The notes beneath the pieces are model-generated. The model had not been told where the DNA came from. It was given only the letters and a program-made list of their open reading frames with translations, and did not search any database. Positions 7,532 to 63,515 of a stretch of 64,000 nt of DNA are shown piece after piece; the stretch's first letter is position 1; each line of letters opens with the position of its first letter. A program made the position numbers and the translations under genes. The stretch is from NCBI GenBank assembly GCA_002269645.1, contig NIVC01000620.1:310001-374000 (forward strand), in the 5' to 3' direction. Origin of the DNA: Macrostomum lignano (Eukaryota).

Positions 7532-7659
7532 GTTGGTTTGTGATGTTTTAACTCGATACGTTTATTCATTGTATATCTGTGTTCATTGTCACTTTTTTTA
7601 ACTGAAATTGTTTTGATGCTTCTCTATTCTTACTTCCTTTATCTCACGCCTGCCCTCAT

Positions 7660-9130
7660 TTCACCCCTGTCCTCTCCACCCTCTTTTTCTCTCCCCTCCT
7701 TTCTCCCATCTCCTCTCCCCTTCTTTCTCCCCTCTCCTTTCTCCCATCTCCTCTCCCCTCTCCTTTATCCCCTCTCCTTTCTCCCCTCCTTTCTCCCCTC
7801 TCTTCTCCCCTCTCCTTTCTCCCCTCTCCTTTCTCCCATCTCCTTTCTCCCCTCCTTTCTCCCCTCTCTTCTCCCCTCTCCTTTCTCCCCTCTCCTTTCT
7901 CCCATCTCCTTTCTCCCCTCCTTTCTCCCCTCTCTTCTCCCCTCTCCTTTCTCCCATCTCCTCTCCCCCCTCCTTTCTCCCCTCTCCTTTCTCCCATCTC
8001 CTCTCCCCTCTCCTTTCTCCCCTCTTCTTTCTCCTCCTTTCTCCCCTCTCCTTTCTCCCATCTCCTCTCCCCTCCTTTCTCCCCTCTTCTTTCTCCCCTC
8101 CTTTCTCCCCTCTCTTCTCCCCTCTCCTTTCTCCCATCTCCTCTCCCCTCTCCTTTCTCCCCTCCTTTCTCCCCTCTCTTCTCCCCTCTCCTTTCTCCCA
8201 TCTCCTCTCCCCCCTCCTTTCTCCCCTCTCCTTTCTCCCATCTCCTCTCCCCTCTCCTTTCTCCCCTCTCCTTTCTCCCCTCTCCTTTCTCCCATCTCCT
8301 CTCCCCTCCTTTCTCCCCTCTCTTCTCCCCTCTCCTTTCTCCCCTCCTTTCTCCCCTCTCTTCTCCCCTCTCCTTTCTCCCCTCTCCTTTCTCCCCTCTC
8401 CTTTCTCCCCTCTCCTTTCTCCCCTCTCCTTTCTCCCCTCTCTTCTCCCCTCTCCTTTCTCCCATCTCCTCTCCCCCCTCCTTTCTCCCCTCTCCTTTCT
8501 CCCATCTCCTTTCTCCCATCTCCTCTCCCCTCCTTTCTCCCCTCTCTTCTCCCCTCTCCTTTCTCCCATCTCCTCTCCCCCCTCCTTTCTCCCCTCTCCT
8601 TTCTCCCATCTCCTTTCTCCCATCTCCTCTCCCCTCCTTTCTCCCCTCTCTTCTCCCCTCTCCTTTCTCCCATCTCCTCTCCCCCCTCCTTTCTCCCTTC
8701 TCCTTTCTCCCATCTCCTCTCCCCTCTCCTTTCTCCCCACTCCTTTCTCCCATCTCCTCTCCCCTTTCCTTTCTCCCCTCTTCTTTCTCCTCCTTTCTCC
8801 CCTCTCCTTTCTCCCCTCTCCTTTCTCCCCTCTTCTTTCTCCTCCTTTCTCCCCTCTCCTTTCTCCCATCTCCTCTCCCCTCCTTTCTCCCCTCTCCTTT
8901 CTCCCATCTCCTCTCCCCTCCTTTCTCCCCTCTCCTTTCTCCCATCTCCTCTCCCCTCCTTTCTCCCCTCTCCTTTCTCCCATCTCCTCTCCCCTCCTTT
9001 CTCCCCTCTCCTTTCTCCCATCTCCTCTCCCCTCCTTTCTCCCCTCTCCTTTCTCCCCTCTCCTTTCTCCCATCTCCTCTCCCCTCCTTTCTCCCCTCTG
9101 TTTTCTCCCCTCTCCGTTCTTCCCTCTCTT
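7660..9130. repeat. Polypyrimidine minisatellite
   Basis: TCTCCTTTCTCCCC variants, almost purely C/T. Confidence 0.93.
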
Positions 9131-10508
9131 CCTGTCTCACTCCTTTCTCCCCTCATTTCTCTTCTCTCCTCTCTCTTTCATTTCTCCCCTCACATCTGTC
9201 CTCTCTCCTTTCCCTCATCTCTTCTCCCCCTCTCTTTTCTACTCTGCTCCATTTTCTCCTCTCCCTCGTTTCCTCTTCTCTCTTTCCTTTCTACTTGCCT
9301 TCTTGTCTCTTGTTTCTCCTCTCTTCCTGTTTCTCATCTCTCCTTTTTATCGCTTTCTTATCTCTACTTTACTTTCAGTTTTTTTACGTTATTGTAATCT
9401 TCCCTCCGCCTGTAATCTCATAACTCATCACTCTCATCTTGAAGGCAATTCCAATCCAATCTACGAAAAATATCGAGTCGAAAATGTACGAGGATTAATG
9501 CAGATTGACAGTTGATATGAAGTTGAGCTTAAGCACGCCATAATGCCATTTGATAATTAATCCCTAGCTGCTGCGGATCATGTGCATTTGGCTCTGTAAT
9601 TAGAGCCTATTGTTATGAGACTATTCCATACAGACAATGCCAGCCTGAATTAAATGGCATTGGATACTGAAGTAGATTGATTTTTTTCTGTTATCCATCT
9701 GCCTTTCTTGTCGTCTTTCGTTTCTCTAAAGTCGTACGAGTATCTGTCCATGGATTCTTAGTAGCATTCTCTGGACTCTGAGCAGGAAAAGCCAGAAACT
9801 CCTAGATTAAAAACTCTGGACTGGAAACGGTGAACAGGGAAGTCAGGGATTCCTAGTTAGAACTCTGGACTGGAAGCGAACAGGGAAATCCAGGGACTCC
9901 TAGCTGGAGCTCTGAACTAGAAATGGCAAGCAGGGAAAACCAGGGACTCCCATCTGAAGCTCTGGACTGGAAACGTCAAATAGGGAAAACCAGGGACTCC
10001 TAGTTGGAACTCTGAACTGAAAACAAACAGAAAATGCCAGGGACTCCTAGAAGTCTCTAGATTGGAAAGTATGTAAGAAAGACAGAGACTTCAAAAGAAT
10101 CGATGATGCTTTTGTGTATTATATTACATGTTTATGGCTTCTTGCTGGCTCTGACTTACTAATAATGTACCCTTAGTAACTAAATGGGCGTTGTCTGTTA
10201 TTCTATTGATTTTGTCAAACTCTTTTCCTCTGCATTAAGATAGGACAGTAGCTAGGGTCTGTGCTCTGTACTCCCTACGCCCTATGAATCTATAGTCAGT
10301 CTATAGTCACCTCTGTTTTTTTCTAAAAAAGTTCTTTATTACAACCAACCAAATTCCACGTTGAATGGAAGTTTCCATCGCTCCAGCTCTGTACTGTCTT
10401 CACCTGCCTCTCTTCCCCGTTGCACATGTCCATCATGTGAATTTTCTTCCTGTCCCTTTTTCTACCTGTCCAAACTGTCTGCACTGCTGTTACCTATGTC
10501 TGGAATGG

Positions 10509-10726: not shown

Positions 10727-11184
10727 CAGAAAGAGCAGAAAAGGGGGCTGAGCTGACAGACAGAACGTCACTGCACAGGTAGACTTCTCGCCTCTAAGCT
10801 TAACCACGTATTAAAATCCTCTCCCCTTGCTCAGAACCTCATTGGTCAGCTCTGTACTGACAGACTCAGCTCTGGCTTATTCTAACCCTTATAGAGCATA
10901 AAAATCTATTATTCCCATATATGTTCCTGACGAAATAATCCCCAATTGAATCTCAGTTATAGGCAAATCTCTGTAAGCTTTATTATATAGATATATTCAA
11001 TCTCTTCAAGTCTCAATGGTTGTTCAACTGCAGTCTACTGAGATTAAACTAAGAGGTGAATTTTTTTCTATTACTTTTTGCACTACTTTTGTTAGGTCTG
11101 TCTGTTTACATTAATAGCAATGTTTTTTTCATGTAGCATTTTATTTTATTTGTACAAGCTTGCTGCCTGCAACTGCCAATCTGC

Positions 11185-13550
11185 CATCATCCCAGATCCT
11201 CGGTTGCTGGGCCAGCCTCCCCGATCATCAGTTGCTGGGCCAGTCTCCCGATCATCAGTTGCTAGGCCACCAGTCTCCCAGATCCTCAGTTGCTGGGCCA
11301 CCAGCCTCCCAAATGCTCAGTTGCTGGGCCACCAGCCTCCCAGATTCTCAGTTGCTGGGCCACCAGCCTCCCAGATTCTCAGTTGCTGGGCCACCAGCCT
11401 CCCAGATTCTCAGTTGCTGGGCCACCAGCCTCCCAGATCCTCAGTTGCTGGGCCAGTCTCCCCGATCATCAGTTGCTGGGCCACCAGTCTCCCAGATCCT
11501 CGGTTGCTGGGCCACCAGCCTCCCAGATCCTCAGTTGCTGGGCCAGCCTCCCAAATCCTCAGTTGCTGGGCCACCAGCCTCCCAGATTCTCAGTTGCTGG
11601 GCCACCAGCCTCCCAGATCCTCAGTTGCTGGGCCACCAGCCTCCCAGATCCTCAGTTGATGGGCCACCAGCCTCCCAGATCCTCGGTTGCTGGGCCAGCC
11701 TCCCAGATCATCAGTTGCTGGGCCACCAGCCTCCCAGATCCTCAGTTGCTGGGCCACCAGCCTCCCAGATTCTCAGTTGCTGGGCCAGCCTCCCAAATCC
11801 TCAGTTGCTGGGCCACCAGCCTCCCAGATTCTCAGTTGCTGGGCCAGCCTCCCAAATCCTCAGTTGCTGGGCCACCAGCCTCCCAGATTCTCAGTTGCTG
11901 GGCCAGCCTCCCAAATCCTCAGTTGCTGGGCCACCAGCCTCCCAGATTCTCAGTTGCTGGGCCACCAGCCTCCCAGATCCTCAGTTGCTGGGCCACCAGC
12001 CTCCCAGATCCTCAGTTGATGGGCCACCAGCCTCCCAGATCCTCGGTTGCTGGGCCAGCCTCCCAGATCCTCAGTTGCTGGGCCACCAGCCTCCCAGATC
12101 CTCAGTTGCTGGGCCACCAGCCTCCCAGATCCTCAGTTGCTGGACCAGCCTCTCAGATCCTCAGTTGATGGGCCAGCCTCCCAGATCCTCAGTTGCTGGG
12201 CCACCAGCCTCCCAGATTCTCAGTTGCTGGGCCACCAGCCTCCCAGATCCTCAGTTGCTGGGCCACCAGCCTCCCAGATTCTCAGTTGCTGGGCCACCAG
12301 CCTCCCAGATCCTCGGTTGCTGGGCCAGCCTCCCCGATCATCAGTTGCTGGGCCAGTCTCCCGATCATCAGTTGCTAGGCCACCAGTCTCCCAGATCCTC
12401 AGTTGCTGGGCCACCAGCCTCCCAAATGCTCAGTTGCTGGGCCACCAGCCTCCCAGATTCTCAGTTGCTGGGCCACCAGCCTCCCAGATTCTCAGTTGCT
12501 GGGCCACCAGCCTCCCAGATTCTCAGTTGCTGGGCCACCAGCCTCCCAGATCCTCAGTTGCTGGGCCAGTCTCCCCGATCATCAGTTGCTGGGCCACCAG
12601 TCTCCCAGATCCTCGGTTGCTGGGCCACCAGCCTCCCAGATCCTCAGTTGCTGGGCCAGCCTCCCAAATCCTCAGTTGCTGGGCCACCAGCCTCCCAGAT
12701 TCTCAGTTGCTGGGCCACCAGCCTCCCAGATCCTCAGTTGCTGGGCCACCAGCCTCCCAGATCCTCAGTTGATGGGCCACCAGCCTCCCAGATCCTCGGT
12801 TGCTGGGCCAGCCTCCCAGATCATCAGTTGCTGGGCCACCAGCCTCCCAGATCCTCAGTTGCTGGGCCACCAGCCTCCCAGATTCTCAGTTGCTGGGCCA
12901 GCCTCCCAAATCCTCAGTTGCTGGGCCACCAGCCTCCCAGATTCTCAGTTGCTGGGCCAGCCTCCCAAATCCTCAGTTGCTGGGCCACCAGCCTCCCAGA
13001 TTCTCAGTTGCTGGGCCAGCCTCCCAAATCCTCAGTTGCTGGGCCACCAGCCTCCCAGATTCTCAGTTGCTGGGCCACCAGCCTCCCAGATCCTCAGTTG
13101 CTGGGCCACCAGCCTCCCAGATCCTCAGTTGATGGGCCACCAGCCTCCCAGATCCTCGGTTGCTGGGCCAGCCTCCCAGATCCTCAGTTGCTGGGCCACC
13201 AGCCTCCCAGATCCTCAGTTGCTGGGCCACCAGCCTCCCAGATCCTCAGTTGCTGGACCAGCCTCTCAGATCCTCAGTTGATGGGCCAGCCTCCCAGATC
13301 CTCAGTTGCTGGGCCACCAGCCTCCCAGATTCTCAGTTGCTGGGCCACCAGCCTCCCAGATCCTCAGTTGCTGGGCCACCAGCCTCCCAGATTCTCAGTT
13401 GCTGGGCCACCAGCCTCCCAGATCCTCAGTTGATGGGCCAGTCTCCCCGATCATCAGTTGCTGGGCCACCAGTCTCCCAGATCCTCGGTTGCTGGGCCAC
13501 CAGCCTCCCAGATCCTCAGTTGCTGGGCCAGCCTCCCAGATCCTCAGTTG
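11185..13550. repeat. Minisatellite, 31/27-bp unit with a 1113-bp higher-order duplication
   Basis: CTCCCAGATCCTCAGTTGCTGGGCCACCAGC; identical translated tracts offset by 1113 bp. Confidence 0.95.
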
Positions 13551-13633
13551 GTTCTTCATCTAAAACTGTCAATATTTAGAAAAATCCATAAGTGCAGTGC
13601 ATTAATCTGTGTGAAACGCTGAATATTTTGCAG

Positions 13634-13759
13634 CGATACCAGAAGAGCTGGCACAAGGCATGGCAGCAATGGACGCAGATGAAGGCTCAGCACCCGACGG
13701 ACTGGCAGAGGACTCAACTGTGGATGTCGAACATGATGGAGGCGACGCAGCCATTGCTC
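13634..13759 (+). CDS. Putative upstream exon of the MAP7-like gene
   Basis: TTTTGCAG acceptor, open 126-nt phase 1-1 exon (AIPEELAQGMAAMDADEG…), GTGAGT donor; phase-compatible with exon 26424. Confidence 0.6.
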
Positions 13760-14249
13760 GTGAGTCGCTTTTGTCTATGGCAGTGAGCCAATATTGAGCA
13801 ACCATTTCGGATAGCAAAGATGCAGTTAAGAGAAGTAAGGGAAGATTTTTTTGATTCAGACGTCAATCAACTTCACTTCCTGTCTGCCTCCGGCTGATTT
13901 CCTATCACACTATCGAGCAGAGTTATAGAATCATTGCTAATTGCGCACTGGAACCACTTCATTCACCCTCTCTAACCCGCAAAAAATAAACTCGCATTTT
14001 AGCTGAAGAAAATTCACTTCCGTCACTGTATTATTATTGACTTCCTGCTTGCAGAGTTTTCTTGCCCAACTATTAATGTGTTGTGACCTGTGTCACAGTG
14101 CTCCCCTGGTGCAAGTGCACTTTGATAGTTGTTGACTTTGGTAGTTGATTATTGTTACCCCCCCCCCCCCCCCCGGCTCAAGCCAGTCTGGAGCTATGAG
14201 CCCTTTGGCTGAGCCTCTGCTCTCTTTCTCTCTCTCTCCCTTTGGCTAG

Positions 14250-14500
14250 CCGTGCTGATTGGCTGGGCCTCTGCTCTCTCTCCCTCTCCCTGGCCGTGCG
14301 CGCTTCCACCCTCCCCTCGCCGCAGCCAATCAGCTGTCAATCAGCTCCATTGTTTAAGCCCTTTCTCCCCCCCCTTGTTTGCGCCCCTGCCCCTTTTTAC
14401 TCGTTATTTAAGGCGACGCTCAGACCCCGCCCCTTTTCTCACCGTGCCTGCGCCCATTTGCGCCCACCGCGATAAATAAACGAACGTGACCAGCGATCAG
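14250..14500 (+). promoter_or_regulatory. LTR U3 core promoter elements
   Basis: Inverted CCAAT boxes (GCTGATTGGCT near 14254, AGCCAATCAGC near 14324); TATA-like/AATAAA GATAAATAAA at 14471-14480, about 28 nt upstream of an initiator-like TCAG immediately before the SL copy. Confidence 0.55.
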
Positions 14501-14542
14501 CCGTAAAGACGGTCTCTTACTGCGAAGACTCAATTTATTGCA
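14501..14542 (+). other. Spliced-leader (SL) sequence copy in the 5' LTR
   Basis: CCGTAAAGACGGTCTCTTACTGCGAAGACTCAATTTATTGCA matches 42 of 44 nt of the Macrostomum SL as recalled (…TTTATTGCATG). The terminal ATG is replaced (GCAATCG) and no GT donor follows. Confidence 0.85.
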
Positions 14543-14664
14543 ATCGATCGGCCTTCCCGTGTATGAGTGCTATAATCGACCCGGCCCGGTAAGCTGTCGA
14601 AACAATTGCCTGTGTTCCTCGGGGTCGCTCTCCTGATCTCTCTCTCTCTCACTCTCTCCTCAGT

Positions 14665-14865
14665 CTGACTCACCAGGCTGTCGAGTGGCCGACCGCCCGC
14701 AGCCCTCTCTCTCTTCCTTGACTCACCAGGCTGTCGAGTGGCCGCCCGCCCACAGCCCTCTCTCTTTTCCTTGATTCACCAGGCTGTCGAGTGGCCGACC
14801 GCCCGCAGCCCTCTCTCTCTTCCTTGACTCACCAGGCTGTCGAGTGGCCGCCCGCCCACAGCCGC
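14665..14865 (+). repeat. 53-bp tandem repeat x4 in the LTR (also about 22496-22695)
   Basis: TGACTCACCAGGCTGTCGAGTGGCC… units start at 14666, 14719, 14772 and 14825. Confidence 0.85.
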
Positions 14866-15032
14866 CCCTCCCCTCTCTCTCGACTTCTCAACCTTGACCT
14901 CCCCCCGAAGTGTCCGTACGCCTCGGGGTCGCCGATCGAGCTCGTAAGCCCTGGGCAGTCTAGTACCCGAACCCCGACACCGCTACCCGTCGCCCAACCC
15001 GGCCGTGCCAGCGAGGAAGGGGGATACAACAT

Positions 15033-15050
15033 TGGCGCCCGAACAGGGAC
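15033..15050 (+). other. Primer-binding site for tRNA-Lys(UUU)
   Basis: TGGCGCCCGAACAGGGAC starts 1 nt after the 5' LTR; the same 18-mer as the HIV-1 tRNA-Lys3 PBS. Confidence 0.93.
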
Positions 15051-15074
15051 TGCTCAGTTTGCTTGTGAGCTGTC

Positions 15075-16055
15075 ATGGCGAATGTGGACGAACTGATTCG
15101 GCTGCTAGCCGAGCGTCTGCGAGCGGATGGACCAGCCCAGCCACCGAGACTCCCGAAGCCCGTGAAGTACACGTCAAGCATGAATTTTCGACTCTGGCTG
15201 CGCTCTTTCAACGCTTATTGCGACTCCGCCGAGATTGACGAGGAGCATCGCCGCGAGCACTTGATGAGCATGCTGGATCTCGCTACGGCGTACGCTGCGG
15301 TCGATAATCTGAACCTGCCGGGACCCGACGATCCTGTGGATCCGCTGGACTACGAGGGATTCACCGCCCGGTTGGAGGCTCGCTTCTCCCGGTACCGGAC
15401 AGAGCAGGACAGCAAGGTCGAGCTAAAAACCCGAGATCAGAAGGATGGCGAGTCGTTGGAGGCCTACGCAGATGCTCTCCTTGAACTGGTGCGCTGTGCC
15501 TACCCGGCGGCAACTGCCGAGCTGCAGGACGACCTCGCGAAGGATCGCTTCATGCAAGGGGTGAGACTCTCCGACCTCCAGCGAGAGAAGCTCTACCTGC
15601 AGCAGCCCGAAGGTCTGGTGGCAGCACAACGCGCGGTGAGGCAGCTCGAGGCGGCGTCCAAGGCGGCGAAGGGACCGAGATCGGCTGGAGCAACTGGCAG
15701 CGGCCACCGAGGAGTCTTCGTGGTGAGCGGCGCGGCGGAATCTGTGCCTCGGGAGGATGGAGCCTACTCCCAAGAAAAGGACAAAGAGCTCGAGGAGTTG
15801 AAGAAACTGGTGAGGCAGCTTCAAGGCAAAGTGGTTCAGCTCGAGTCGCTGAGAGCGGAACCGCATAGCAGCGCCGCAGCTCGACCGACCGACTCCGACG
15901 AAGGCGACCATCAGAAGCCTCGACGAACGGGAGGAATTCGCTGCTTCTTCTGCAACAAGCCAGGGCACATCGCGACTAACTGCCCAACCCGTCAGCAACA
16001 GGGAAACGGCAAGGGGAACTTCCGCAGGGGCGAGGGAGTTCCGCCGAGACAGTAG
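15075..16055 (+). CDS. gag: Gag polyprotein (326 aa) with CCHC zinc knuckle
   Basis: ATG 24 nt after the PBS; C-X2-C-X4-H-X4-C motif CFFCNKPGHIATNC near the C-terminus. Confidence 0.93.
   Translation: MANVDELIRLLAERLRADGPAQPPRLPKPVKYTSSMNFRLWLRSFNAYCDSAEIDEEHRREHLMSMLDLATAYAAVDNLNLPGPDDPVDPLDYEGFTARLEARFSRYRTEQDSKVELKTRDQKDGESLEAYADALLELVRCAYPAATAELQDDLAKDRFMQGVRLSDLQREKLYLQQPEGLVAAQRAVRQLEAASKAAKGPRSAGATGSGHRGVFVVSGAAESVPREDGAYSQEKDKELEELKKLVRQLQGKVVQLESLRAEPHSSAAARPTDSDEGDHQKPRRTGGIRCFFCNKPGHIATNCPTRQQQGNGKGNFRRGEGVPPRQ
16001..16045 (+). promoter_or_regulatory. -1 programmed ribosomal frameshift signal
   Basis: G GGA AAC heptamer in correct gag phase (16001-16007), 7-nt spacer, 9-bp stem 16015-16023/16034-16042. 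The -1 frame is open from 15980 into the protease. Confidence 0.8.
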
Positions 16056-19000
16056 AGGCCCCAACCCGAGACGAAGATGCAGCCCCGGAGCGACGTGCAG
16101 CAGGATGTCCGGCGGACTGCTCAAGAGATAGAGATCAACCTGCAACAGCTTTTAATCCCGTGTCAATCTACGTGTCGGTAAAAATTGGCGAGATTGAGTT
16201 GCCGTGTCTGTTGGATTCGGGCTCGGTCATGTCGCTGGTGAACGAGAGGACCTGGCGGCAGTTGAGCAAGTCGGTTCGAGTTGAACTCAGCCCTTCGGAA
16301 ACCCACCTGATCTCAGCGAACGGAACTCCCATGAATGTGTTAGGATGCGCGTCGCTTCCCCTACAGTTCGGATCAGAAACTTTACAGACGCCAATTGCGG
16401 TGGTCCAAGGGGTCGGCTACGAACTGTTGCTAGGCACCGACTTCTTACGCCGCCACCGGTGCCAAATCGATTTCGCCGGAGGAGTTTTCCGCGTGAACGG
16501 TTCACGTGTGCCAATCCGAGAGACCAAGCACAAACCAGTCGTCTGCCGGTTGTACCTGAACGAAAACTTGATCATTCCGGCCAATCACGAACGGACCGTC
16601 TCAGCCAGGATTCGGAGAACAGCGACACAGAATTCCGGAGTGCTCGGCGTCGCCGAGCCAGACGAAAAACTGAAGAGCGATGAGAGACCAATGCTAGCCA
16701 GGAGCGTCTGCCTCATCCAGCAGGGCAACACCCTACCAGTTCACTTCGCGAATGTCACGGACTCCGAGCTGCGGCTGCGGAAGGGAGCTGTCATCGGCTG
16801 GTTTCGACCATCAGATCCGGCTCAAGAGGTTCTGGTAGCCAGCATCGAAGAGCAAGCGTCGGTTTTACGACCCAGCTGCGATCCATGGGACCCAGAGGCG
16901 GCACTGAACCAGCACGGCTCCAAGCAGCTCACGGGGGCAGACAAAGCGAGTTTCCTAAGATTGGTGAATCGATACGCAGATGTTTTCGCAGAGAGTACAG
17001 CGCGCCTCGGGACGACGGACATCGTGCAGCATGAAATTGAGACCACCGGAACAGCCGTAAAACAGCCTCCGCGACGGCTACCGCCACATTGGCGCGGCGA
17101 AGTCGACCGACAAATCGACGAGCTTTTGGCAACGAAGATGATTGAACCGACCCAATCGCCGTGGAGTTCGCCAGTGGTCTGTGTCCGTAAGAAGAATGGG
17201 GAACTGCGACTGTGTGTCGACTACAGAGAGTTGAATCAACGAACTGTCAAGGACGCCATAGCAATCCCGCGTGTCGATGACGCACTTGAAGCGCTCGGAG
17301 GTGCGGCTGTATTTTCGACGCTCGACCTTTGCTCCGGCTATTGGCAAGTTAAGGTCAAAAGGGAGGATCAAGAAAAGACTGCTTTTGTCATTCCGCATCG
17401 GGGCAATTCGCGTTCAAGGTGCTGCCCTTCGGATTGACCAATGCGCCGGCGACATTCACAAGGTTGATGAATATGGTACTACACGACCTTCTGTGGAAAA
17501 TGGCGCTCGTCTACATCGACGATATCATCATTTGGTCCCGAACTGTCAGCGAGCATCTAACGAATCTCGAGGCGGTATTCCAGCGCCTGCGCGCAGCCAA
17601 CTTGAGGCTAAAGCCATCTAAGTGCAGATTCCTGGCCGATGAGGTCAAATTCCTTGGCCACGTCGTGTCAAAGGACGGAATCGATGTCGACCCGGAGAAG
17701 ATCAAGGAAGTCCGTGACTGGAGCATTCCAAGAAATGCAAAAGACCTTCAGTCGTTCCTGGGTCTGGCTGGTTACTACCGAAACTTCATACCAGAATTCT
17801 CGATAGTCGCTGCACCACTTTTTGATCTGACAAAGAAAGACAAGCCGTTCAGTTGGAGAGAGGAACACGATGAGGCCTTCAAAAAGCTGAAAGAAGAATT
17901 GACCGGTTGCCGCGTGATGGCCTACCCGAACTTCGACCCCACGGCTGGTGAGTTCATCTTGGATACCGATGGAAGTACCCGACAGGGTCTCGGAGCAGTC
18001 TTGTCGCAGGTACAAGAAGACGGGTCAGAGCGGGTTATTGCGTACGGGAGTCGGCGTCTGCAAGGGGCCGAATTCAACTATTGCACGACACGAATCGAGC
18101 TCCTGGCGCTGGTGACATTCGCAGAGAGGTTCCGGTACTATCTACTTGGCCGGAGGTTCCGGGTGCGCACCGACCACGCAAGTCTGCAGTGGCTCCGAAG
18201 TATGAGGCAGCCGGAAGGCCAGTTGGCTCGGTGGATGGAGAGGTTGGCGCCATTCGACTTCGCAGTGGAGCATCGGCCAGGGGCGCGTCATCAGAATGCG
18301 GACGCGCTGTCACGCAAGCCGCGCGACGACATCCCGAAATGGATAACTGCCCGTCGTGCCGGACTGATGACCTCCCCGGGGTCAGGGTAACGACGCTGCT
18401 CGGGTTGCTCAGCCGAGATGAGCTGGCAGCAGCACAAGCTGTGGACAACGACATCGCTCCAGTTTACCAGTCGATGCACGCCGGCCGAGCAAACGAAGAG
18501 CCACCTCGGGGTGCGTCACCAACGACCCGAGCCATCTGGGCACAAAAGCCTCGGCTGGAAATTGTGGACAACACCCTCGTCATCAAGGATCTGGGACGTC
18601 ACCCACCGCGGGCTGTTCTCCCGAAGAAATTGATCCCCGACGCTCTGCAGACGCTGCACTCTGGACCAGGAGGTGGACACTTCGGCGTAGCAAAGACTCT
18701 GGAGAAAGTCAGGAACCGATTCTGGAGACCCGGCTTGAAGCGAGAGGTCGAGGAGTTTGTGCGAAGGTGTGACGACTGTAACCGGAGCAAGCCCGGGATG
18801 CGGCGGAAGGCCCCATTGGAGCCGATTCCCAGCAGCCATGTGTTTGAAAGAGTGATGGTGGATTTGATTGGACCACTGCCAACCAGCGTCCGAGGCAACA
18901 AATACATACTGACGATGCAGGACGCGTTCAGTAAGTGGCCAGTGGCAGTACCGGTGCCAGATCAGACGGCCAGCACCTGTGCAAGGGCAATGCTCGAGGA

Positions 19001-19976
19001 GTGGGTCTGTCACTACGGAGCCCCAGGAACAATCCACTCGGATCAGGGAGCCAATTTCGAGTCGCAATTGATCGGCCAGCTGTGCGAAAGTCTGAATATC
19101 CGAAAGACGCGTACGACCGCCTATCACCCCTCTGGAAACGGCCAAGTGGAAAGCTTCAATAAGACGCTGACTGCAGTGATCCGGGCGCACCTGGTGAAGG
19201 AGCCGGATCAGAGGCGGTGGGACGAATTCGTTGCCCCGGCGCTCATGGCGTATCGCTCCAGTGTGCACCGCGGCACCGGCTACTCACCCTTCTTCCTTCT
19301 GCATGGTCGCGAGATGTCTCTGCCAGTTGACTTGGGAGTGGCGCGCCCACTGGACATCGAACCGTACTGCGAGGAAGTCCAGAACCTGCGGGAGACGCTC
19401 GTGGAAGCCCATCGGGTGGTGCGTGAGAGAATAACGTCATATCAACGAGTGCAGAAAGACTGGTACGACCGGAAGGTGAAGGGTCGAGAATTCGTGGCTG
19501 GCGACGAGGTGTTCGTCTACAACCCCGTGTTGAAGGCCGGTGCCAAAGCGAAGCTCCACTCACCCTGGACCGGACCTGCCGTAGTTCTCGAGAAGCTGTC
19601 GGAGACGCGCTATAGGATTCGACAGGAAGGTCGACGGAAGCCGATCAAGGTGGTGCACTTTAACAACCTCCTGCCTCGGTACCGGAAGTACCCGGTCGAC
19701 GGCACCGGTGGCCCTCGGCGTCCTGCACCAAGGAGGTACCACCCAGGTCCTGCTCAAGAGACGGAATCCGTCAGGGAGGACTCGCAGGAATCGGACGATG
19801 AGGATGAGGAGCGATGGTGGCGACATTCCGGGCGGGTTCGAGAGGAGGGAGAACCAATGGATGTGCAGCAGCCAGGAGTGCAGCCGCAGCCGGAAGCGCC
19901 AGTTGAAGTCATCGAAGGTCGACCCCAGAGGGATCGAAGGGTTCCGCAGCGTTATGGAACGCCCGTTTATTATTAA
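16008..19976 (+). CDS. pol: Pol polyprotein (protease, RT, RNase H, integrase) with two single-base frameshifts
   Basis: LLDSGS protease; LDLCSGYWQ, LPFGL and YIDD in RT; DTDGS…GLGAVL, TDH and ADALSR in RNase H; HHCC, D-D-E and GPY/F-like WTGP in integrase. Frame breaks at a GGGG run (17400-17403) and a CCC run (about 18333-18335). Confidence 0.92.
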
Positions 19977-20026
19977 GAGCGGACGTGAGTGCGTGCGCAA
20001 TGTCGCGTCATCTCCTGCGTCATAAA

Positions 20027-20195
20027 TAATTGGTTCGAAGCATCATCCGCGTCATCACCTGCGTCATCAACATTTGGTTCGAAGCATCATCCGCGTCATC
20101 ACCTGCGTCATCAACATTTGGTTCGAAGCATCATCCGCGTCATCACCTGCGTCATCAACATTTGGTTCGAAGCATCGTCTGCGTCATCACCCGCG
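20027..20195 (+). repeat. 44-bp tandem repeat (about 3.8 units) between pol and ORF3
   Basis: CATTTGGTTCGAAGCATCATCCGCGTCATCACCTGCGTCATCAA at 20071, 20115 and 20159. Confidence 0.85.
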
Positions 20196-20397
20196 TTATT
20201 GAAAACTGGGCTCGTGTTATTGCCTCTGCTTCACAAACAAAAATATATATTTCCCCTCTTAAGGCCCGTCAGTGGAGGTCCCACCTGCCCAACCCTGCCA
20301 TCAGGGATGAAGGATCGGCGCCCCAAAGAGGCTCGAAGGAACCATTGCCCTGCTCTCAAAAGTGAGTCGTGGTTGTTGCAGGCACTGCTTTCCGGGC

Positions 20398-21279
20398 ATG
20401 GACCTCTACGCCGAGTTTGGTGTCAGCCCCTTCGCGACGGAGGAGGAGCTGCGACGTGCGTACCGCCGTGAGAGCCTGCGACGGCACCCCGACAAGTGTG
20501 GACCCGGTGGAACGGAGAATTTCCAGAGGCTGCAGCATGCGAGTGCGGTCCTGCTGTGTCCGTTTCGACGAGCGCTGTACGACCGGTTCGGGCAGGATGC
20601 CGTTAGCAACCCGCTCGAGTGCGCCCGGTATTTTGTCCCGCCGGATGGGATGTGCGTCCCGGAGGAGTTTGTCGTAACGATTGAAGACGAAACAGAAGAG
20701 TCAGACGAGGACAGGGAGTCGGAAGGAAGCGAGCGTGGTGGTTGCGGCGGCGAGGAGACTGCTCAGAGCTGCTGTGAAATCACGCAGTCAGAGGAAGAAG
20801 AGCTCTTGAATGAATCCGACGGCGAAACTTCGATGTCAGAAGACGAACCGGAGCTCGTCATCGACCAACGGGAGTCGCCAGCGTGGCTGATGAGGAGCGA
20901 GCCGAGTACCGAGGTGGAATACACCTGGAGCGGGGAGGCAACGCAGCGAAGAGCTCGAATCCGGTCGGAGCTTCGGCACGCTTTGTTGTCGGGGAGTCCA
21001 GCTGCGATGTTCCGGCTTTTGACTGAAATGGTGGGACTGTGCGGCAGCGAGCGGCTGGATCATCGACGCGAAATCGCCGAGCTTTTGGCTCAGACTGTCA
21101 AGTTCATTCTCCGTGACATCAGCGCCAAGTGTCGGGGTCATGCTCGGCGTGTCTGGCGGCGGCCTGCCTTCAAGCGAAGCACTCGGTTCGTCATGAGTGT
21201 TGCGATCCCTCAGTTTGAACTAATCGACGGAGGACGCGTGTTGGGGTTGTTGCGCCGGGCGGCGGAGGTGGCGGTCTAG
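20398..21279 (+). CDS. ORF3: J-domain (DnaJ/Hsp40-type, HPD) protein, 293 aa, carried inside the retrotransposon
   Basis: N-terminal 65 aa DLYAEFGV…ELRRAYRRESLRRHPDK…FQRLQHASAVL…RRALYDRFG follows the J-domain pattern (HPD at 20485-20493); then an acidic linker and a predicted helical C-terminal region. Lies between pol and the 3' LTR. Confidence 0.88.
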   Translation: MDLYAEFGVSPFATEEELRRAYRRESLRRHPDKCGPGGTENFQRLQHASAVLLCPFRRALYDRFGQDAVSNPLECARYFVPPDGMCVPEEFVVTIEDETEESDEDRESEGSERGGCGGEETAQSCCEITQSEEEELLNESDGETSMSEDEPELVIDQRESPAWLMRSEPSTEVEYTWSGEATQRRARIRSELRHALLSGSPAAMFRLLTEMVGLCGSERLDHRREIAELLAQTVKFILRDISAKCRGHARRVWRRPAFKRSTRFVMSVAIPQFELIDGGRVLGLLRRAAEVAV

Positions 21280-21409
21280 GGGGTTCTGGGGCAGGATGCC
21301 AGGGCGGGCAAGAGACCTTCACTCCTTCATTTCATCCCATCTCTCCTCTGATCGTCGTTGTGATCCCTCTGTTTGGCACTGGGAGCGGCCCCGAAGGAAG
21401 GGCGGGGAA

Positions 21410-21815
21410 CACTCTCGGCCATGCCCGGCGCTCTCGGTCGTTGCCCGGCATTCTCGGCCGCTGCCCGGCATTCTCGGCCGCTGTCCGGCACTCTCGGCCA
21501 TGCCCGGCGTTCTCGGTCGCTGCCCGGCATTCTCGGCCGCTGCCCGGCATTCTCGGCCGCTGTCCGGCACTCTCGGCCATGCCCGGCGTTCTCGGCCATG
21601 CCCGGCGTTCTCGGTCGCTGCCCGGCATTCTCGGCCGCTGTCCGGCATTCTCGGCCATGCCAGGCGTTCTCGGCCGCTGCCCGGCATTCTCGGTCGCTGT
21701 CCGGCATTCTCGGCCATGCCCGGCGTTTTCGGCCACAGTCCGGCATTCTCGGCCGTGCCCGGTGTTCTCGGCCTGTCCGACATCCTCGGCCCCTGTCCTG
21801 CGCTCTCGGCCGCTG
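21410..21815 (+). repeat. GC-rich 19-21-bp tandem array in the element's 3' UTR
   Basis: CCGGCATTCTCGGCCGCTGC / CCGGCGTTCTCGGCCATGC variants. Confidence 0.85.
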
Positions 21816-21906
21816 CCTGACACTCTTGGTCTCTTTCATTCAGTTTCATTTCATTACATTTTTTTTTCATTTTCATTCAGTCAAAGCGCGTCGTTTTCTT
21901 TTTTTT

Positions 21907-21917
21907 AGGGGGGAGGG
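21907..21917 (+). other. Polypurine tract
   Basis: AGGGGGGAGGG directly abuts the TG of the 3' LTR, preceded by a T run. Confidence 0.92.
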
Positions 21918-22861
21918 TGTTGTGACCTGTGTCACAGTGCTCCCCTGGTGCAAGTGCACTTTGATAGTTGTTGACTTTGGTAGTTGATTATTGTTACCCC
22001 CCCCCGGCTCAAGCCAGTCTGGAGCTATGAGCCCTTTGGCTGAGCCTCTGCTCTCTTTCTCTCTCTCTCCCTTTGGCTAGCCGTGCTGATTGGCTGGGCC
22101 TCTGCTCTCTCTCCCTCTCCCTGGCCGTGCGCGCTTCCACCCTCCCCTCGCCGCAGCCAATCAGCTGTCAATCAGCTCCATTGTTTAAGCCCTTTCTCCC
22201 CCCCCTTGTTTGCGCCCCTGCCCCTTTTTACTCGTTATTTAAGGCGACGCTCAGACCCCGCCCCTTTTCTCACCGTGCCTGCGCCCATTTGCGCCCACCG
22301 CGATAAATAAACGAACGTGACCAGCGATCAGCCGTAAAGACGGTCTCTTACTGCGAAGACTCAATTTATTGCAATCGATCGGCCTTCCCGTGTATGAGTG
22401 CTATAATCGACCCGGCCCGGTAAGCTGTCGAAACAATTGCCTGTGTTCCTCGGGTCGCTCTCCTGATCTCTCTCTCTCTCACTCTCTCCTCAGTCTGACT
22501 CACCAGGCTGTCGAGTGGCCGACCGCCCGCAGCCCTCTCTCTCTTCCTTGACTCACCAGGCTGTCGAGTGGCCGCCCGCCCACAGCCCTCTCTCTTTTCC
22601 TTGATTCACCAGGCTGTCGAGTGGCCGACCGCCCGCAGCCCTCTCTCTCTTCCTTGACTCACCAGGCTGTCGAGTGGCCGCCCGCCCACAGCCGCCCCTC
22701 CCCTCTCTCTCGACTTCTCAACCTTGACCTCCCCCCGAAGTGTCCGTACGCCTCGGGGTCGCCGATCGAGCTCGTAAGCCCTGGGCAGTCTAGTACCCGA
22801 ACCCCGACACCGCTACCCGTCGCCCAACCCGGCCGTGCCAGCGAGGAAGGGGGATACAACA
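21918..22861 (+). repeat. 3' LTR (944 bp)
   Basis: Preceded by a polypurine tract, followed by the AATG TSD; near-identical to the 5' LTR. Confidence 0.97.
22332..22373 (+). other. Spliced-leader (SL) sequence copy in the 3' LTR
   Basis: Identical 42-mer at the same offset within the LTR. Confidence 0.85.

Positions 22862-56088: not shown

Positions 56089-63515
<7,427 letters not shown>

Follow-up and report, generated by a model that had tools for sequence, protein, structure and literature searches.

The 64,000-nt stretch of the Macrostomum lignano genome analysed here (contig NIVC01000620.1, positions 310,001 to 374,000; hereafter the window, in whose coordinates positions are given) contains a young Ty3/Gypsy long terminal repeat (LTR) retrotransposon copy, complete at 8783 nt (14079-22861, plus strand), that carries behind pol a third open reading frame (ORF3) for a J-domain protein. 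An initial annotation of this sequence had proposed that ORF3 is expressed, in the manner of errantivirus env, from a spliced subgenomic mRNA joining a mini-exon in the 5' LTR to the J-domain frame. Our analysis slightly prefers a different main route, to which we assign an even chance, namely that transcription of the ORF3 message begins at an internal promoter located between pol and ORF3, with or without spliced-leader (SL) trans-splicing at an acceptor at 20381; the LTR splice is a plausible, unproven and slightly less likely interpretation. By itself such a splice would be one further case of a known design, and the larger result is the element, which combines a conserved J-domain third ORF instead of an envelope with the host spliced leader at its predicted LTR start. 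Neither a J-domain ORF3 nor a leader copy in an LTR was found in the literature searched (openly readable papers, without Repbase), and an earlier classification of M. lignano LTR elements (ref. 16 of PMC12801592) may describe the ORF.

The 421-nt pol-ORF3 gap holds core promoter motifs where a promoter of the type described for the Oikopleura elements Tor3b and Tor4b would be expected, as judged post hoc and against a generic consensus. The candidate internal core promoter (20244..20274, plus strand) comprises TATATA at 20244 (the plus strand of the whole element has no other TATAWA) and an Inr-like TCAGTG whose A, at 20271, lies 27 nt on; an internal promoter is further supported by the same TATA-Inr spacing in the LTR (26-28 nt). 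Such a pair arose in 15 of 3000 shuffles of 19977-20397, and in 2 of 3000 shuffles of the last 198 nt of the gap. Upstream lie four to five CGTCA-rich tandem repeats of 44 nt (20004..20199, plus strand), a candidate enhancer whose CGTCA motifs we take to be CRE half-site-like; nine CGTCA fall within 19977-20220, compared with 15 CGTCA/TGACG across the remaining element. The initial annotation had itself named an internal promoter as the case that would speak against its spliced message, and it is this case to which the TATA and Inr motifs lend sequence support.

Downstream of the candidate start, a donor-like AAA/GTGAGT (20362) is followed by the acceptor TTGCAG (20381), the two together occupying 20362..20381 on the plus strand, with the acceptor sequence reading GTTGTTGCAG/G. 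This acceptor, 405 nt from the pol stop and unaccompanied by any other YTNCAG from 19262 up to the J ATG, matches the M. lignano trans-splice motif [T/C]TNCAG, a fit overlooked by the initial annotation; according to the accessible text of PMC8629364, this is the top motif of trans-splice sites in this worm, in which 30% of genes are trans-spliced. A second candidate acceptor, TTCCCCTCTTAAG (20244..20263, plus strand; acceptor 20263), overlaps the TATA box and is out of frame, and has the best pyrimidine tract (12 of 14) among the 17 AGs found from the pol stop to the J ATG. An out-of-frame upstream ORF of 54 codons (20307..20471, plus strand), whose ATG at 20307 has G at -3, overlaps the J start and is lost by any splice at 20381. 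Reading 20362-20381 as a 20-nt intron was considered and rejected, the public contigs described below being gapless here and its removal failing to put ATG 20307 in the J frame. No AATAAA occurs between pol and ORF3.

Under the internal-promoter reading, a Macrostomum Ty3/Gypsy lineage would have ORF3 as a conserved accessory gene, whose translation would begin at ATG 20398 on an mRNA that would start near 20271 under the control of the CGTCA repeats and TATA 20244, as for Oikopleura Tor4b. The 110-nt leader with ATG 20307 would be scanned past, or else discarded as an outron when SL trans-splicing occurs at 20381. In the genomic RNA, the short LTR frame would then act as a weak upstream ORF of 9 codons, and the donor behind it (14589) may yield a minor spliced isoform or be merely a cap-proximal U1 site. 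As to function, J-protein biology suggests that the protein most likely uses its HPD motif to deliver host Hsp70 to a client held by its basic helical C-terminal domain, which would serve particle assembly or disassembly or be directed against a silencing complex.

Several points weigh against this reading. The TATA-Inr test was devised after the motif had been seen and uses the consensus of other animals, and the start at 20271 is likewise motif-based, contigs being able to show neither starts nor levels. An unspliced internal transcript would carry the out-of-frame ATG 20307, with its G at -3, across the J start, and trans-splicing at 20381 would supply a leader AUG that opens a 29-codon out-of-frame ORF, which again overlaps the J start; because one or other of these starts is out of frame, leaky scanning would be needed with or without trans-splicing. 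In an environmental contig that bears the leader (L001), a stop follows 4 codons after the leader AUG, which indicates that this AUG is not always the translation start. The trans-spliced variant is further disfavoured in that no joint of the leader to 20382 (or to 20264) is among the 15 joints listed for the contigs of four public runs. Finally, the usual route to an ORF3, in so far as PMC5408684 describes it, is a spliced message.

ORF3 itself (20398..21279, plus strand) encodes 293 residues from its own ATG, with a J domain at approximately 1-82, an acidic disordered linker at 103-174 and a helical bundle at 177-293. Its only Pfam match is DnaJ (E 1.4e-12), which begins at the residue after the Met of ATG 20398, and HPD stands at residue 30; ORF3 contains no transmembrane helix (maximum 19-residue hydropathy 1.09) and no LxCxE motif. 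Single-sequence folding was poor (pLDDT 49), and AlphaFold2 with a five-sequence alignment gave an all-helical model (pLDDT 73.9) in which a disordered acidic linker separates the J domain from a confidently predicted helical bundle. The modelled J domain matches solved J domains closely (Z 10.7, rmsd 1.2 over 69 aligned residues), the C-terminal bundle finds generic fold matches only (best Z 8.3, rmsd 2.2, 80 aligned), and the best fold matches of the whole model align chiefly the J domain (TM approximately 0.2 of the query). On sequence and model, ORF3 thus appears to be a class C J-domain protein, with J fold and HPD and with neither zinc-finger nor DnaJ C-terminal domain. Since DnaJ is the only match, no transmembrane helix is present and the model is all-helical, it is not an F-type or gB-type envelope.

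Among 1.84 billion representative sequences searched there were 6225 matches, of which the best 150 were considered and 13 inspected; nearly all of these best 150 are confined to the J domain. Relatives extending beyond it number six among the 13 (P0004, P0006 and P0008 over the full length, P0059 over the C-terminal part, and P0005 and P0007), to which a profile search added P0155 and P0200; an earlier protein search had yielded one ordinary DnaJ among 3103 candidates, and an Atlas search with the C-terminal part of P0006 gave no usable match. Across families that share only 29-37% identity, ORF3 stays intact and retains both HPD and a conserved C-terminal domain, from which we infer that it is expressed somewhere. 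In three M. lignano gene models (P0005, P0007 and P0200) a Gypsy integrase continues into the J ORF, and a location behind pol is therefore common to families with ORF3s only about 30-35% identical; the UniRef entry P0200 is 95% identical over 92% of ORF3. P0008 and P0059 come from JGI/IMG metagenome contigs (7008 and 1132 nt), which suggests that the family also exists in wild populations or other species. Pattern matches for the DNA of ORF3 relatives were confirmed in none of 33 cases in metagenome contigs and none of 7 in viral contigs.

At the other end of the element, the 5' LTR contains a predicted core promoter (14471..14500, plus strand) made up of a TATA-like GATAAATAAA, which includes the sole AATAAA of the LTR (14475), and an Inr-like TCAG 26-28 nt on. 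This geometry places the predicted genomic RNA start, at approximately 14499-14500, on the first base of an SL copy (14500..14542, plus strand), which reproduces the 45-nt spliced-leader exon up to nucleotide 43, without the terminal TG of the leader AUG. The reference for this comparison is an SL RNA gene at 617-725 of an environmental metagenome contig (L002), located by a pattern scan, which has a 45-nt exon, a GTAAG donor and an Sm-like U tract; starting at the first leader base, the LTR matches it without a mismatch for 43 nt, and upstream of that base nothing is shared. The copy overlaps the 35-nt M. lignano leader given in the available text of PMC8629364, than which the L002 exon extends 10 nt further 5'. 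That the LTR might act as an SL RNA gene was rejected, the copy being 2 nt short, the donor lying 46 nt downstream and 14589-15031 containing no Sm-like motif, of which L002 has one. Judged by its sequence, the LTR segment is a copied leader exon and no SL RNA gene.

The mini-exon of the initial annotation follows this copy. As had been described, ATG 14563 lies 20 nt past the SL copy end (14542) and opens a 9-codon upstream ORF (14563..14592, plus strand), with a coding part of 26 nt to the donor, that reads MSAIIDPAR and then stops; it is the sole ATG between 14480 and the gag ATG at 15075. The candidate donor CCG/GTAAGC (14586..14594, plus strand; first intron base 14589, TAA at 14590-14592) lies in the inferred U5. 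It had been called strong, and indeed ranks third of the 314 GT sites in 14500-20400 by a crude U1-pairing score, although it is not unique, 17948 and 20362 scoring higher. All coordinates and lengths reported for the ATG, the donor and the acceptors 20381 and 20263 proved correct, and phase arithmetic reproduced both products: joining 14588 to 20382 continues in the J frame (9 + 298 = 307 residues), and joining 14588 to 20264 gives 9 + 68 = 77. An errantivirus-type layout is therefore present, with an upstream ATG and peptide, a donor and a phase-matched acceptor before ORF3; the spliced subgenomic design is known from errantiviruses, as parts of 10.1101/2023.08.03.551782 and PMC2585583 describe.

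The phase match as such is no better than chance. Of the 17 AGs lying between the end of pol and the J ATG, four would continue a phase-2 donor in frame without meeting a stop, and an in-frame open YAG occurred in 1253 of 3000 dinucleotide shuffles of 20200-20397 (42%), an in-frame open YTNCAG in 160 of 3000. The extension-bearing J protein that the initial annotation envisaged is not favoured: the context of ATG 14563 is weak, with T at -3 and A at +4, whereas G occupies both -3 and +4 at the start codons of gag and the J ORF, making ATG 20398 strong, and the 14-residue extension is present in no relative. The mini-exon peptide occurs in none of 202 stored proteins, among which HCFPG, the stretch read between acceptor and J Met, is found in the frame of the window and in the near-identical P0200 only. 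All five relatives with an N-terminus (P0004, P0005, P0006, P0007 and P0008) have a Met just before the J domain, and in P0004 this Met is directly preceded by LLQ, like the acceptor of the window read in another frame, which hints, at the protein level, at an acceptor kept at another distance from the ATG. Because LLQ would then put the acceptor 0 nt rather than 16 nt from the ATG, a conserved fusion peptide is disfavoured, and the extension looks dispensable under every scenario. The gene model P0200, from a near-identical copy, uses acceptor 20381 in frame and also the LTR donor, the latter separately and into host exons, so that the two sites are not joined to each other; as a chimeric gene prediction it does not count as evidence from RNA.

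Public sequencing contigs were used to look for the predicted joints. With 20200-21350 as query, 19 of 24 listed runs contain the stretch or part of it, all as contigs and none recorded as RNA; four of the 19 (X1, X3, X7 and X15, from four studies) were aligned, to 13500-21400 only. Such contigs show presence, neither absence nor starts nor levels, and lose rare isoforms. Depth in the leader bin was 26,000-68,000 in X1, X3 and X7 versus 1,291 in X15, and over the intron flank 13764-14027 it was 0, 2.1 and 0 in the former versus 13.5 in X15; on account of these depths X1, X3 and X7 were taken as RNA-like. Contig depths over ORF3 (31.5, 12.4, 8.65 and 35.7 in X1, X3, X7 and X15) and over pol (approximately 20.7, 10.6, 7.9 and 36.6) were left unused, depth being unable to rank genes, as was the missing cover at 14601 in X1 and X3.

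Neither 14588-20382 nor 14588-20264 is among the 15 joints listed for the contigs of the four runs, 182 further rows lying beyond the listing; 13 of the 15 fall in a flanking repeat (13500-13553), the other 2 being chance leader matches. Joints of 14542 to 19865 (X1, X7) and to 20697 (X3) were dismissed, because host contigs bearing the leader appear to match there by chance; their sides are 21-22 letters long, their depth is 58-244 and the skipped part lacks an AG end. That joints are detectable in such contigs follows from X7, in which the leader is seen joined to a host exon at 13633; X1 has the same exon within a longer contig. In all three RNA-like runs one 1325-nt contig spans 20147-21400 with no differences or gaps and so bridges both acceptors. 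From the way such assemblies branch, a well-used acceptor should break a contig, and the unbroken contigs lower the odds of a dominant spliced form, a minor or tissue-limited form being compatible with them. At the donor, a variant at 14601 is carried by X7 and X15, 59 and 88 letters from the contig end, and we infer that these contigs run through the donor. No variant is listed at the ATG, donor or acceptor in the near-identical copies represented in the contigs, which is uninformative given their near-identity. Of the spliced subgenomic message initially proposed, the sequence layout and a plausible acceptor thus stand, whereas the contigs, unbroken over the acceptors and without a listed joint, do not bear it out; that the 14588-20382 junction exists at some level is, in our estimate, only a little short of an even chance.

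Among the alternatives to an internal promoter, the one that survives best is that the main ORF3 mRNA is a cis-splice of an LTR exon (approximately 14500-14588) to 20382, giving an SL-like 5' end with or without the 14-residue extension. The strongest argument for it is that it removes ATG 20307 and is the only route without an out-of-frame start; in addition, the phase matches, the sole ATG before gag sits in the LTR exon, the donor rank and the isolated YTNCAG at 20381 are favourable, P0200 uses both sites, though not joined together, the LLQ of P0004 hints at a kept acceptor, and ZAM/Beagle and Tor3a, as far as the published descriptions at hand extend, share the design. However, the joint is missing from those listed, although the same contig comparison did reveal the leader-13633 joint of X7, contigs run unbroken across the acceptor in the three RNA-like runs and across the donor region in X7 and X15, the phase match has the high chance rate given above, the ATG context is weak, the extension is missing from relatives and, if the LLQ of P0004 is an acceptor, the phase is lost. 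On balance we consider it rather unlikely that this is the main route.

A less probable alternative, which we would hold quite unlikely, is that no dedicated ORF3 mRNA exists in the conditions sampled, ORF3 being read rarely from genomic RNA or in a narrow cell type, or the donor being spliced to 20263 to give the dead-end 77-residue peptide. Contigs traverse the whole element with no listed branch, and the pyrimidine tract of 20263 exceeds those of the other AGs, both as this alternative would have it; against it, ORF3 is intact, with its HPD and C-terminal domain conserved across families, and for use of 20263 the joint with 14588 is again missing from those listed. An operon-like arrangement, in which SL trans-splicing at 20381 cuts ORF3 from a long LTR-driven RNA with no internal promoter, agrees with the acceptor motif, with a host that resolves operons in this way (approximately 15% of genes are in operons) and with a distance from the pol stop below the 1-kb operon threshold (both from the accessible text of PMC8629364), yet it is improbable given that an upstream cis donor is expected to compete for the acceptor (same source), that the gap lacks AATAAA, that the leader AUG is out of frame and that an SL-20382 joint is absent from those listed.

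The preferred internal promoter and the LTR splice both have counterparts in known elements. Errantiviruses such as ZAM and Beagle, in the accounts available, likewise carry gag, pol and ORF3 in sense, with a short peptide upstream that runs up to a donor and an in-frame acceptor ahead of ORF3; their ORF3 is an F-type envelope, whereas the present one is a soluble J-domain protein, encoded by an element whose donor is within the LTR and whose splice is only predicted. In the Tor elements of Oikopleura, as described in the available part of PMC4402516, env of Tor3a is spliced from near gag, env of Tor3b and Tor4b is transcribed from an internal promoter, and Tor4b env cDNAs begin, unspliced, in the intergenic space after pol. 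The present element is similar in having ORF3 behind pol, both routes open and a candidate promoter in the intergenic gap, but the Tor promoters were mapped by rapid amplification of cDNA ends (RACE) and reporters and their cargo is Env, whereas ours are motifs and the cargo is a J protein. Bdelloid rotifer LTR elements also carry captured non-envelope ORF3s with cell-type domains behind pol (GDSL esterase, DEDDy exonuclease; PMC5408684, in part); these domains differ from that of ORF3, and DnaJ occurs 0 times in the main text of that paper. In the same host and superfamily, the Ty3/Mdg4 (Gypsy) families Mag, CsRN1, Gmr1/Osvaldo and Mdg3/Micropia are described in PMC12801592, the main text of which contains none of the terms ORF, DnaJ, splic and leader, and in the five supplements searched the sole occurrences of DnaJ are in rows of transcript annotation. 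As HPD-bearing J domains in a selfish genome that presumably use host Hsp70, baculovirus BJDP and giant-virus DnaJ resemble ORF3. Polyomavirus T antigens are also viral J-domain proteins. The best fold matches of ORF3 cover mostly the J domain, and ORF3 is without LxCxE.

A broader scenario, which we put forward as speculative and hold to be doubtful, is that a flatworm Gypsy lineage took both a host Hsp70 co-chaperone gene, retained as its conserved third ORF, and, at its LTR start, a spliced-leader exon with the AUG disabled, so that its RNAs would begin like trans-spliced stem-cell mRNAs without the SL small nuclear ribonucleoprotein, and the J mRNA would receive its leader at one acceptor, in cis from the LTR exon joined to 20382 or in trans by true SL splicing of an internally initiated transcript, amounting to a cis/trans switch. 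In M. lignano 85% of stem-cell genes are trans-spliced, according to the text available of PMC8629364. Such an element would be a natural test of leader sequence function without trans-splicing and of the use of Hsp70 by a retroelement, and the question is directly testable, since transgenesis and LTR reporters exist for M. lignano.

The remainder of the element is that of a Ty3/Gypsy retrotransposon. Its LTRs (5', 14079..15031, 953 nt, TGTTG...CAACA; 3', 21918..22861, 944 nt, also bearing an SL copy, a mini-ORF and a donor; both plus strand) have TG...CA ends and are identical apart from one G and 8 nt within a run of C, and both flanks of the element carry a 4-bp target duplication, AATG. 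The primer-binding site (15033..15050, plus strand) is, we presume, of tRNA-Lys type; together with the 4-bp duplication it seems to us reminiscent of Osvaldo. Pfam identifies gag with a CCHC zinc knuckle (15075..16055, plus strand) and pol (15980..19976, plus strand) with protease, reverse transcriptase (RT), RNase H and integrase in the Ty3/Gypsy order; among 12 solved sequences the RT-RNase H part is closest to Ty3 (E approximately 1e-60 for Ty3 chains, 1e-31 or weaker for others). Two frame breaks in pol, near 17.4 and 18.3 kb, may be assembly errors, since the contigs of all four public runs differ from the window at both. Within the gag-pol overlap, GGGAAAC at 16001-16007 lies in the gag frame with pol in the -1 frame, and we take it to be a likely -1 frameshift site. 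The 3' untranslated region contains imperfect tandem repeats of approximately 20 nt and then a polypurine tract before the 3' LTR (21410..21834, plus strand); long frames open on both strands over these repeats at 21219-21987, including one on the plus strand (21219-21905) without a Pfam match, and are probably a by-product of the repeats. A motif scan of the element, LTR included, found no canonical heat-shock element, and an Rfam scan gave a single match at chance level (E 2.1).

A host exon on the plus strand (13634-13759; acceptor 13633, donor 13760) lies 320 nt upstream of the element, and because the X7 and X1 contigs carry it the element appears to be inserted in sense within an intron of an expressed gene. 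One X15 contig over 13551-14078 stops matching at the LTR border and continues for 46 more letters; it may represent an empty-site allele, in which case the insertion would be polymorphic. In the P0200 copy the gene model splices from the 3' LTR donor (compare 22321-22422 of the window) into acyl-CoA dehydrogenase exons that lie outside the window, making LTR-driven chimeric host transcripts possible. Elsewhere in the window, long open frames occur in low-complexity or tandem-repeat DNA at 7544-9515, 11096-13579 and 57185-59393, among others; a 771-aa frame at 11118 has Pfam matches that look spurious, with 0 passing stretches, and a long array with a 20-nt period starts at 57185.

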